DNA of 64,000 nucleotides from a virus: IMG/VR virus record IMGVR_UViG_3300028393_001967, one strand, 5' to 3'. Shown piece by piece: positions 22,427-23,336 of the stretch. Positions within the stretch are counted from its first letter, which is position 1; each line of letters opens with the position of its first letter. Made by a program: the position numbers and the translations under genes. The notes under the pieces are model-generated. The model ran no database searches, was not told the origin of the DNA, and was given only the letters and a program-made list of their open reading frames with translations.

Positions 22427-22678
22427 ATGTTTGAAGTGATTGGTAAAGAAGAAACATTCAAAGTTTTAACACTGACTGAGGCGATGAATCTTGCCAAGCA
22501 CATGAATGAGTTTGTGACTATCAAAGGTCAAGACTTTGAAATTGTAGGTATGTTTGGTGTAGACAGTATTCGTGATGGTGTTTGTCCAGATGGTGTTAAA
22601 TACGATTGGAACAAAACCAGCCGAATAGGCGCATCAAAAAGAAATGAAAGGGTAATTGAAAATGAAGAAGATTATTGA
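22427..22678 (+). CDS. hypothetical protein
   Basis: Operonic ORF. Confidence 0.65.
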   Translation: MFEVIGKEETFKVLTLTEAMNLAKHMNEFVTIKGQDFEIVGMFGVDSIRDGVCPDGVKYDWNKTSRIGASKRNERVIENEEDY

Positions 22679-23336
22679 GATTAGAGCTGCCGAAGGTGGC
22701 GAAGATAGTAAACTGTTTGTACGAGATCTGGCACAAGCCTATATCAAGTTTGCACAAAGCCGGGGCTGAACTACCCGCCTGATAGGTGAGTACCAAGGCG
22801 AACTTCATTTAGAAGTACAGGGCACTGACCTATCCGGCTTAAAGAATGAACCTGGAGGACATCGCATACAGCGTGTTCCACCCACCGAAAGGAAAGGACG
22901 TGTTCATACCAGCACAGTGACCGTGGCCATCATAGATGACACTGATCGTCCAAGAGTTGTGGCTATACCAGAAACTGATTTAAAAATCGAGTGGTACAGC
23001 GGCACTGGTGCTGGAGGTCAGCACCGTAACAAGCACCAAAATTCCTGCCGAATAACTCATATTCCCACTGGAGAAGTGGCCACTGCACAGTGCCGTAGTC
23101 GTCAAAACAGTTTGGATCAAGCTAGGACAGATATACAGCAAAGAGTTGACAAACTGACTAAAACCAGTTATAATACACACATAGCAAGTGATAGGCGGCA
23201 ACAGGTTGGGTCGGGTATGCGTGGTGATAAAATTCGTACTTACCGTTTCCAAGATGATGTTGTCAAGGATCACTTAACAGATCGTACAGCCAGTGTTAAA
23301 AAGGTATTGGCTGGTAATTTTGATTTACTTTGGTAA
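22662..23336 (+). CDS. RF1-like peptide chain release factor lacking domain 1, in-frame TGA at codon 36
   Basis: IIEIRAAEGGEDSKLF..RG*..HRIQRVPPTERKGRVHTST..GAGGQHRNK..KIRTY, all in one frame. Confidence 0.85.
23146..23174 (+). promoter_or_regulatory. sigma70 promoter inside the release-factor gene
   Basis: TTGACA-17-TATAAT upstream of the RNA ligase. Confidence 0.65.

Follow-up and report, generated by a model that had tools for sequence, protein, structure and literature searches.

How does a phage make a release factor from a gene whose frame is closed by a stop codon after 35 codons, and is such a stop damage or a control point? The question is raised by a gene in a stretch of virus DNA of 64,000 nucleotides (IMG/VR record IMGVR_UViG_3300028393_001967; the whole stretch is called the window below), which is part of the genome of a giant freshwater phage, with 39% G+C and tightly packed plus-strand genes. 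The gene encodes a class-I release factor of the release factor 1 (RF1) type without domain 1, and its codon 36 is TGA. On the comparative evidence given here, this codon of an RF1-type phage gene is a real recoding site, and a strongly conserved one. The gene and its parts are as follows.

22662..23336, plus strand: release-factor gene (class I, RF1 type, no domain 1) of 224 codons, counting the in-frame TGA; it runs from ATG at 22662 to a TAA that ends at 23336
22662..22766, plus strand: codons 1-35, 5' of the stop, encoding the first strand and a helix with a GGED tip
22767..22769, plus strand: in-frame UGA, codon 36, the recoding site, at a conserved Trp position of RF1; the next base is A
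22770..23333, plus strand: codons 37-224, encoding the rest of domain 2, the GGQ domain and domain 4

An RF1-type factor that begins at domain 2

The program-made list of open reading frames (ORFs) starts this gene only at GTG 22917, past the TGA. An earlier note on this DNA, made from the letters and that list, had instead placed the start at ATG 22662 and followed the same frame through TGA 22767-22769 into an RF1-type factor with PxT and GGQ motifs, with the stop at a position equivalent to Trp. All of this is borne out. The 224-codon frame matches the C-terminal half of the Pfam PCRF domain (E = 2.8e-24) and the RF-1 domain (PF00472, E = 5.7e-19). Among the NCBIfam models, prfA matches the protein with 199 bits, from position 107 to 333 of its 347, and prfB with 122 bits. 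Among solved structures, T. maritima RF1 (1RQ0) aligns with it over residues 87-314 (E = 2.7e-42). In this last alignment the TGA of codon 36 falls on the Trp of 'RKGW'.

The PPT motif is formed by residues 73-75 (22878-22886) and the GGQ motif by residues 118-120 (23013-23021). The segment HRIQRVPPTERKGRVHTS of the phage factor aligns with HRVQRVPVTESGGRIHTS of T. maritima RF1, and has PxT, not SPF, along with the Gln and Thr by which RF1 recognises bases 2 and 3. The RF1 determinants are present (Gln in HRIQRVP, PPT, and Thr in HTS), and the phage factor is expected from its sequence to release peptides at UAA and UAG. The GGED helix tip, encoded 5' of the stop, corresponds to the part of RF1 by which U1 of a stop codon is read. 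A full four-domain architecture is not found, the alignment starting at model position 107 and at PDB residue 87. Because the match begins at position 107 and its 199 bits lie under the equivalog cut-off of 400, the protein is a truncated relative and not a prfA orthologue; judged by these alignments, it is a class-I factor of RF1 type whose sequence starts with domain 2.

The absence of domain 1, which the earlier note had compared to PrfH, is confirmed, but the likeness to PrfH is one of architecture. PrfH identity was rejected (41 bits with the release_prfH model, cut-off 166.65), and no RtcB is encoded here. ArfB identity was rejected as well (16 bits, cut-off 100). A megablast search of the region against GenBank phages returned no match.

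The internal TGA is conserved and both flanks are under selection

Two IMG/VR scans of 80 loci each, at about 60-85% amino acid identity, yielded 89 distinct nucleotide sequences. Codon 36 is TGA in 80 of 80 loci of each scan, which makes 89 of 89 distinct relatives, and TGA was found in every DNA locus read at this codon. The relatives are diverged enough for pairwise synonymous divergence (dS) to exceed 1, and TGG is only one transition from TGA. Codons 2-35 give a ratio of non-synonymous to synonymous divergence (dN/dS) of 0.13 and codons 37-224 one of 0.11, indicating purifying selection on both sides of the stop and no relaxation. Both parts of the gene share one frame in all relatives. 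Given a dN/dS of 0.13 with high synonymous variation, codons 1-35 are translated in the release-factor frame.

The base itself is also well founded: metagenome contigs from three freshwater runs span the TGA without differences, one of them possibly being the window's own source. A contig from RNA run X18 covers 22600-22730 only and has no bearing on expression.

No in-frame start codon 3' of the stop is conserved among the relatives, and gene callers have chosen varying starts there, giving ORFs of 139-187 amino acids. The consequence for annotation is that such genes are split or called under the wrong code. Database proteins of 175-187 amino acids are ORFs called past the stop, while those of 222-226 amino acids with Trp at position 36, which lie on short contigs, are probably code-4 gene calls; both sets of entries represent the same gene.

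TGA is an ordinary stop codon elsewhere in these genomes

Genome-wide reassignment of TGA (code 4) was considered and rejected. TGA ends 27 of the 88 window ORFs of at least 100 amino acids, as the earlier note had gathered from single examples, and many genes overlap at ATGA. In-frame stops were compared between the window, G001 and G003, between G001 and G005, and between G001 and G007 (the window and four complete relatives), using a best-frame homology filter; the unfiltered scan was swamped by off-frame shadow matches. The filter left a single robust conserved in-frame stop, the TGA of the release-factor gene, both among the window, G001 and G003 and between G001 and G005, and no other was found. 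The G001-G007 scan returned no stop whatever, although the release-factor locus of G007 (L203) has the TGA. Codes 11, 4 and 15 could not be told apart by a crude measure of ORF coverage. The genomes use code 11.

A GOLLD RNA (Rfam RF02032, 201.8 bits) lies at 9458-9922 of the window, with a tRNA-Lys embedded at 9521-9593. It is conserved in G001, and this conservation accounts for some of the apparent in-frame stops of the unfiltered scan.

Sister phages carry a frameshift-type cassette at the same site

In a mostly G+C-rich group of phages, the gene is split exactly at the codon homologous to codon 36 of the window. The N-terminal frame ends in '...RRGL' and a stop, and homology resumes at GGHRWQRVPPTE in the +1 frame. 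These loci were collected with an alignment query, as a single-protein query gave just 3.

L271-L275, L277-L278, L208 and L299-L350: frameshift-cassette loci, for example L272 around 3085-3120

Among the 34 distinct frameshift contexts, CTT precedes the stop in 33; the stop is TGA in 26, TAG in 7 and TAA in 1. The +4 base is C in 25 contexts, and a Shine-Dalgarno-like (SD-like) motif, GGAG, GAGG or GGGG, occurs within 12 nucleotides upstream in 26. By its sequence features, the sister cassette is the prfB cassette, whose bacterial form is an SD-like element followed by CUU UGA C, in an RF1-type gene.

A quick maximum-likelihood tree, whose deep nodes are without resolution, places the window's relatives and L353, which has TGA at the homologous site, in one clade on a long branch (Shimodaira-Hasegawa-like approximate likelihood ratio test, SH-aLRT, 100). 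Within the frameshift group, TGA and TAG have been exchanged several times in this tree. Uninterrupted genes of the domain-1-less RF1 kind number only two or three. A TGA in 89 of 89 relatives, together with a +1 frameshift at the same spot in sister phages, points to a built-in control point and not to damage, and we consider this comparison of sequences across lineages the strongest argument for a regulatory recoding site.

Interruptions also occur at other codons. Very large GenBank phages (LR756502, LR756504, LR745206 and LR756501) and IMG/VR relatives have one or two in-frame TGAs elsewhere in the gene (for example '...SI-TGA-L...'), and in these lineages the genes beside the interrupted release-factor gene are intact in the standard code. 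Loci L206, L209-L211, L265-L270 and L276, from phages of 480-735 kilobases and their relatives, carry a short RF1-type gene of this sort, with one or two TGAs elsewhere.

Sequence constraint and a candidate hairpin 3' of the stop

Codon choice is constrained around the stop beyond what the protein sequence demands. Normalised synonymous-codon entropy is 0.35-0.44 at codons 35-46, compared with a gene mean of 0.75, and dS is 0.75 over codons 37-60 against about 2.0 elsewhere. Individual choices near the stop are nearly uniform, including the rare Ile codon ATA (65 of 66), CGC (68 of 72) and CTT (53 of 57). The +4 base across 70 contexts is A in 46, G in 23, C in 1 and U in none; the window has UGA-A, as previously noted. 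A hairpin can be drawn shortly after the stop.

22776..22800, plus strand: hairpin core on the 3' side of the stop, in which CGCCU...AGGCG encloses GGU/ACC; it begins 6 nucleotides past the UGA

With a UGA in the A site, a position 6 nucleotides beyond it lies at about the mRNA entry site of the ribosome. The earlier note had drawn the hairpin with the arms TACCCGCCT and AGGTGAGTA; these can indeed pair, but theirs is not the conserved pairing, and the relatives keep CGCC(U)...(A)GGCG. The pairing possible across the family is UGAACU...CGCC.GAUA[loop]UAUC..GGCG.AGUUCA. Over the 70 contexts, 82.9% of cells pair, compared with 24-41% when the partners are slid, for a family structure that was derived from the same sequences on which pairing was scored. 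The hairpin is stable in individual relatives (z = -5.4, -4.5 and -3.8), and the 26-nucleotide core of the window folds at -8.0 kcal/mol (z = -2.1).

Proposed readthrough in competition with host RF2

We propose that programmed readthrough of the codon-36 UGA, competing with host release factor 2 (RF2), makes the 224-residue factor, and we give this reading, which comes from sequence comparison, a probability of roughly 55%. Ribosomes that start at ATG 22662 would mostly meet host RF2 at the UGA and release a 35-residue peptide. A fraction would decode the UGA with a near-cognate tRNA, most likely tRNA-Trp(CCA), inserting the Trp that cellular RF1 has at this position, and would stay in frame to produce the 224-residue factor, which would then act at UAA and UAG. 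The local RNA element 3' of the stop, a hairpin in many relatives, probably raises the fraction that reads through.

Since RF2 and the tRNA compete for one codon, output would track RF2 inversely: as RF2 activity per ribosome falls, output of the phage factor should rise. The speed of the release factor at a bypassed stop is the established basis of prfB autoregulation (PMC12421855, PMC10885494). As the yield of bypass at a stop depends on that speed, we read the UGA of the window as a readthrough site whose yield would be set by RF2 and tRNA-Trp in competition, with help from the 3' element. Given its RF1 determinants, the product should not itself read UGA, so that the circuit would be one of RF2 cross-regulation and not of autoregulation, with the logic of the prfB frameshift minus the change of frame. 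By the same reasoning from sequence, the CUU-UAG forms of the sister phages, whose stop would be one for RF1, could be truly autoregulatory.

Programmed recoding as an analogue of the prfB frameshift was the central suggestion of the earlier note, and it is strongly supported by the conserved TGA, the selection on both sides, the synonymous constraint 3' of the stop and the +1 cassette of the sister phages. A restriction of factor synthesis to times of weak RF2 activity would follow by analogy and from the kinetics of UGA decoding. The further thought that the gene senses an attack on translation is speculation; its one basis is the RNA-repair genes nearby, and a ligase adjoins the gene in 1 of 74 relatives.

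On the sequence evidence, the UGA is explained most simply by near-cognate reading by tRNA-Trp, which would bring back the ancestral Trp. tRNA genes were surveyed in six relatives, five complete genomes as a whole and G002 by its tRNA regions only. All six have 40-51 tRNAs, a permuted transfer-messenger RNA (tmRNA) and tRNA-Trp(CCA). Three tRNA-Trp genes read by eye, two from G001 and one from G003, have the pair U11-A24. In E. coli tRNA-Trp this pair arises through the Hirsh suppressor mutation, and B. subtilis tRNA-Trp has it naturally.

Several points weigh against readthrough under RF2 control. Its support is comparative throughout. An RF1-type product cannot read UGA, and what would be gained by coupling it to RF2 is unexplained. 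The switching between UGA and UAG in the frameshift lineages is a misfit with a pure RF2 sensor. Covariation in the proposed hairpin is slight, with double changes at 3 pairs only (the outer stem of the L070 clade, for instance, has U-A in place of C-G), and the hairpin of the window is weak, its 48 nucleotides folding at -8.4 kcal/mol with z = -0.72. No significant hairpin was found in the most divergent members (the L070 clade, L077 and L079), and RNAalifold gave no consensus structure across all 70 contexts. Finally, G003 has two opal-suppressor (UCA) tRNAs next to its tmRNA gene; they are of an ordinary 77 nucleotides and have no long extra arm.

Alternative explanations

A serious alternative, if one we consider unlikely, is that the stop is a fixed attenuator: a constant, low readthrough of the UGA would keep a potentially toxic factor scarce, and nothing would be sensed. 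Such a device has a rationale in the toxicity of RF2 overproduction to E. coli and B. subtilis (PMC12421855). It would suit the weak hairpin of the window, and also the frameshift lineages, whose stop varies among UGA, UAG and UAA as though every slow stop were equally good. However, a weak ribosome-binding site would be a simpler route to low expression. The invariant TGA of the 89 relatives and the use of two recoding devices at one site instead suggest selection on the competition with a release factor, and readthrough or frameshifting at any stop depends kinetically on release-factor activity.

Distinctly less probable is a gate in which an opal-suppressor tRNA of the phage decodes the UGA, so that the factor would appear only after phage tRNA expression. 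The two UCA tRNAs beside the tmRNA gene of G003 could play this part, and with 40-51 tRNAs per phage the window shows only part of the tRNA region. Against this, the 20 tRNAs of the window (97-10963, in an array that runs off the window start) include no suppressor and no tRNA-Trp; exact-pattern scans of IMG/VR and of metagenome contigs for the rest of this genome gave no copy. A UCA tRNA is found in only one of the six relatives, which means that an opal suppressor is no general decoder; the other five have one or two amber-suppressor (CUA) tRNAs each, mostly within a few kilobases of the tmRNA gene.

L083 392-466; L085 409-483; L086 794-870 and 930-1006; also in G004, G005 and G007: suppressor tRNAs of the relatives

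The in-frame-stop comparisons revealed no conserved in-frame TAG for the amber-suppressor tRNAs. About 30% of the genes end in TGA, which would make a strong opal suppressor costly.

We consider it very improbable that two products are made, the 35-residue peptide being intended in its own right and a separate C-terminal protein arising by re-initiation. The 139-187-amino-acid ORFs that gene callers find past the stop could be taken for such a protein, but they have no conserved in-frame start, one frame runs throughout in all relatives, and the first 35 residues align with the strand and helix of the RF1 codon-reading domain. A C-terminal fragment without these residues would presumably miss an element that RF1 needs for stop reading.

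Insertion of selenocysteine, with the hairpin as a selenocysteine insertion sequence (SECIS) element, is less credible still: the hairpin is close 3' of the UGA, roughly at the position of a bacterial SECIS, but the residue is a buried Trp in RF1 and Leu in the frameshift lineages, the UCA tRNAs of G003 lack the long extra arm at their ordinary 77 nucleotides, and the hairpin is absent in divergent members. A sequencing error, a private nonsense mutation or a decaying pseudogene is refuted by the TGA in all 89 relatives, dN/dS of about 0.1 on both sides and the agreement of independent assemblies.

Relation to known systems

Readthrough of the codon-36 UGA would have its closest parallel in prfB. 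A survey of prfB found no CUU-UAG type in that gene (PMC12421855), and in RF2 genes an early in-frame UGA with readthrough had been expected and not found, a UAG counterpart in RF1 genes being unknown (PMC5009743). As in prfB, a release-factor gene is stopped early in frame, the full-length product would need failed termination, and sister phages use the prfB cassette itself. The window differs in that it has no slippery CUU: the Gly codon GGC precedes the TGA, homology stays in frame 0, and the +1 frame closes after 4 codons. Moreover, the phage product is of RF1 type, and feedback by RF2 would be cross-regulation.

Programmed UGA readthrough by tRNA-Trp occurs in bacteria and phages; the A1 protein of phage Qbeta is made by it, in a 3' A context, and so gains a C-terminal extension. 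The phage gene studied here shares with it the UGA-A, the near-cognate tRNA-Trp proposed above and an extended product that would be made at a low level. In Qbeta, however, readthrough extends a functional protein, whereas here it would be needed for any functional protein, and a 3' RNA element is apparently involved. The release factor of a giant amoeba virus is eukaryote-type, in a eukaryotic virus; the phage gene, in contrast, encodes a bacterial-type RF1 without domain 1. According to PMC5009743, the giant amoeba virus gene uses readthrough and, separately, frameshifting; the likeness is that in both cases a virus would depend on recoding of a stop codon to express its release factor.

TGA-recoded Jade phages are reported to have RF1 genes in the standard code and recoded late genes (bioRxiv 10.1101/2021.08.26.457843). 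They too tie a phage RF1 to UGA decoding and suppressor tRNAs, but the genomes considered here are in the standard code and the release-factor gene alone has the UGA. PrfH/RtcB2 and ArfB share with the phage factor the lack of domain 1, and RNA-repair genes are near in the window; unlike PrfH and ArfB, the phage factor keeps the RF1-type codon-reading residues, and the adjacency to a ligase is not conserved. The paper on huge phages lists RF1 and RF2 genes and makes no mention of interruptions (PMC7162821). A full-text literature search found no description of a UGA-interrupted phage RF1 arrangement, which is not proof of absence.

We also put forward, more tentatively and at somewhat less than even odds, that recoding at one site is general for the domain-1-less RF1 of phages, by UGA readthrough, CUU-UGA or CUU-UAG, and comprises both RF1 autoregulation and an RF2-sensing circuit. 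If so, the UAG forms would give RF1-type factors their first autoregulatory loops, and the UGA forms, as a new circuit, would let a virus gauge RF2-dependent termination in its host and supply its own factor when this fails, as it might under a defence of the host or a shut-off induced by the phage. Textbooks use the prfB frameshift as an example of recoding; a simpler scheme, in-frame readthrough, was long proposed and not found in bacterial-type genes, nor was recoding of an RF1 gene (PMC5009743), and the phage genes would supply both. The readthrough design is now open to simple reporter tests on a large natural series of putative UGA readthrough cassettes with a candidate bacterial stimulatory hairpin. 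The sister CUU-UGA and CUU-UAG cassettes amount to a natural experiment on stop identity versus sensing factor. Together, these genes hint at how giant phages may monitor or take over host translation termination.

Gene neighbourhood and other features of the window

The genes around the release-factor gene, and a promoter within it, are listed here.

22427..22678, plus strand: ORF of 83 amino acids, without a match in Pfam or PHROG; it ends in TGA and overlaps the start of the release-factor gene by 17 nucleotides
23349..24368, plus strand: ATP-dependent RNA ligase (DRB0094/PHA02142 type, Rnl type), directly downstream of the release-factor gene
24368..24913, plus strand: phosphoesterase (phrog_547), the more usual downstream neighbour of the release-factor gene
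19027-19491, AAA_33 kinase; 20958-21533, dual-specificity phosphatase; 25698-26609, RNA ligase (Rnl1-like): other RNA-repair genes
23146..23174, plus strand: sigma-70-type promoter TTGACA-N17-TATAAT (12/12 match), inside the 3' part of the release-factor gene and facing the downstream genes

The only recurrent neighbours are the phosphoesterase and the upstream ORF. The 83-amino-acid ORF lies directly upstream in 41 of 72 relatives, and the phosphoesterase lies at most 2.5 kilobases downstream in 35 of 67, often immediately adjacent. The RNA ligase adjoins the release-factor gene only in the window and in L001 (1 of 74 relatives). Of the 89 relatives, 49 have the internal promoter at the same codons, and it coincides with a second synonymous dip at codons ~150-178; with it, the downstream genes could be transcribed independently of the release-factor gene. 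Genes for the salvage of nicotinamide adenine dinucleotide (NMNAT-NUDIX and NAMPT) are found near the release-factor gene at 13070-15525.

Two further RNAs of the window may be mentioned. A permuted, two-piece tmRNA with the tag ANDSVYALAA is encoded at 11764-12311, and one is found in all five complete relatives; this is a hint of a host with a permuted tmRNA, for example an alphaproteobacterium. A tRNA with an eight-base anticodon loop (CUUUUCGG) is encoded at 6235-6311 of the window and at 3533-3607 of L084, and also occurs in G002. ARAGORN reads its anticodon as one of two or four bases; quadruplet decoding is one possibility for this tRNA, an unusual tRNA-Glu another.
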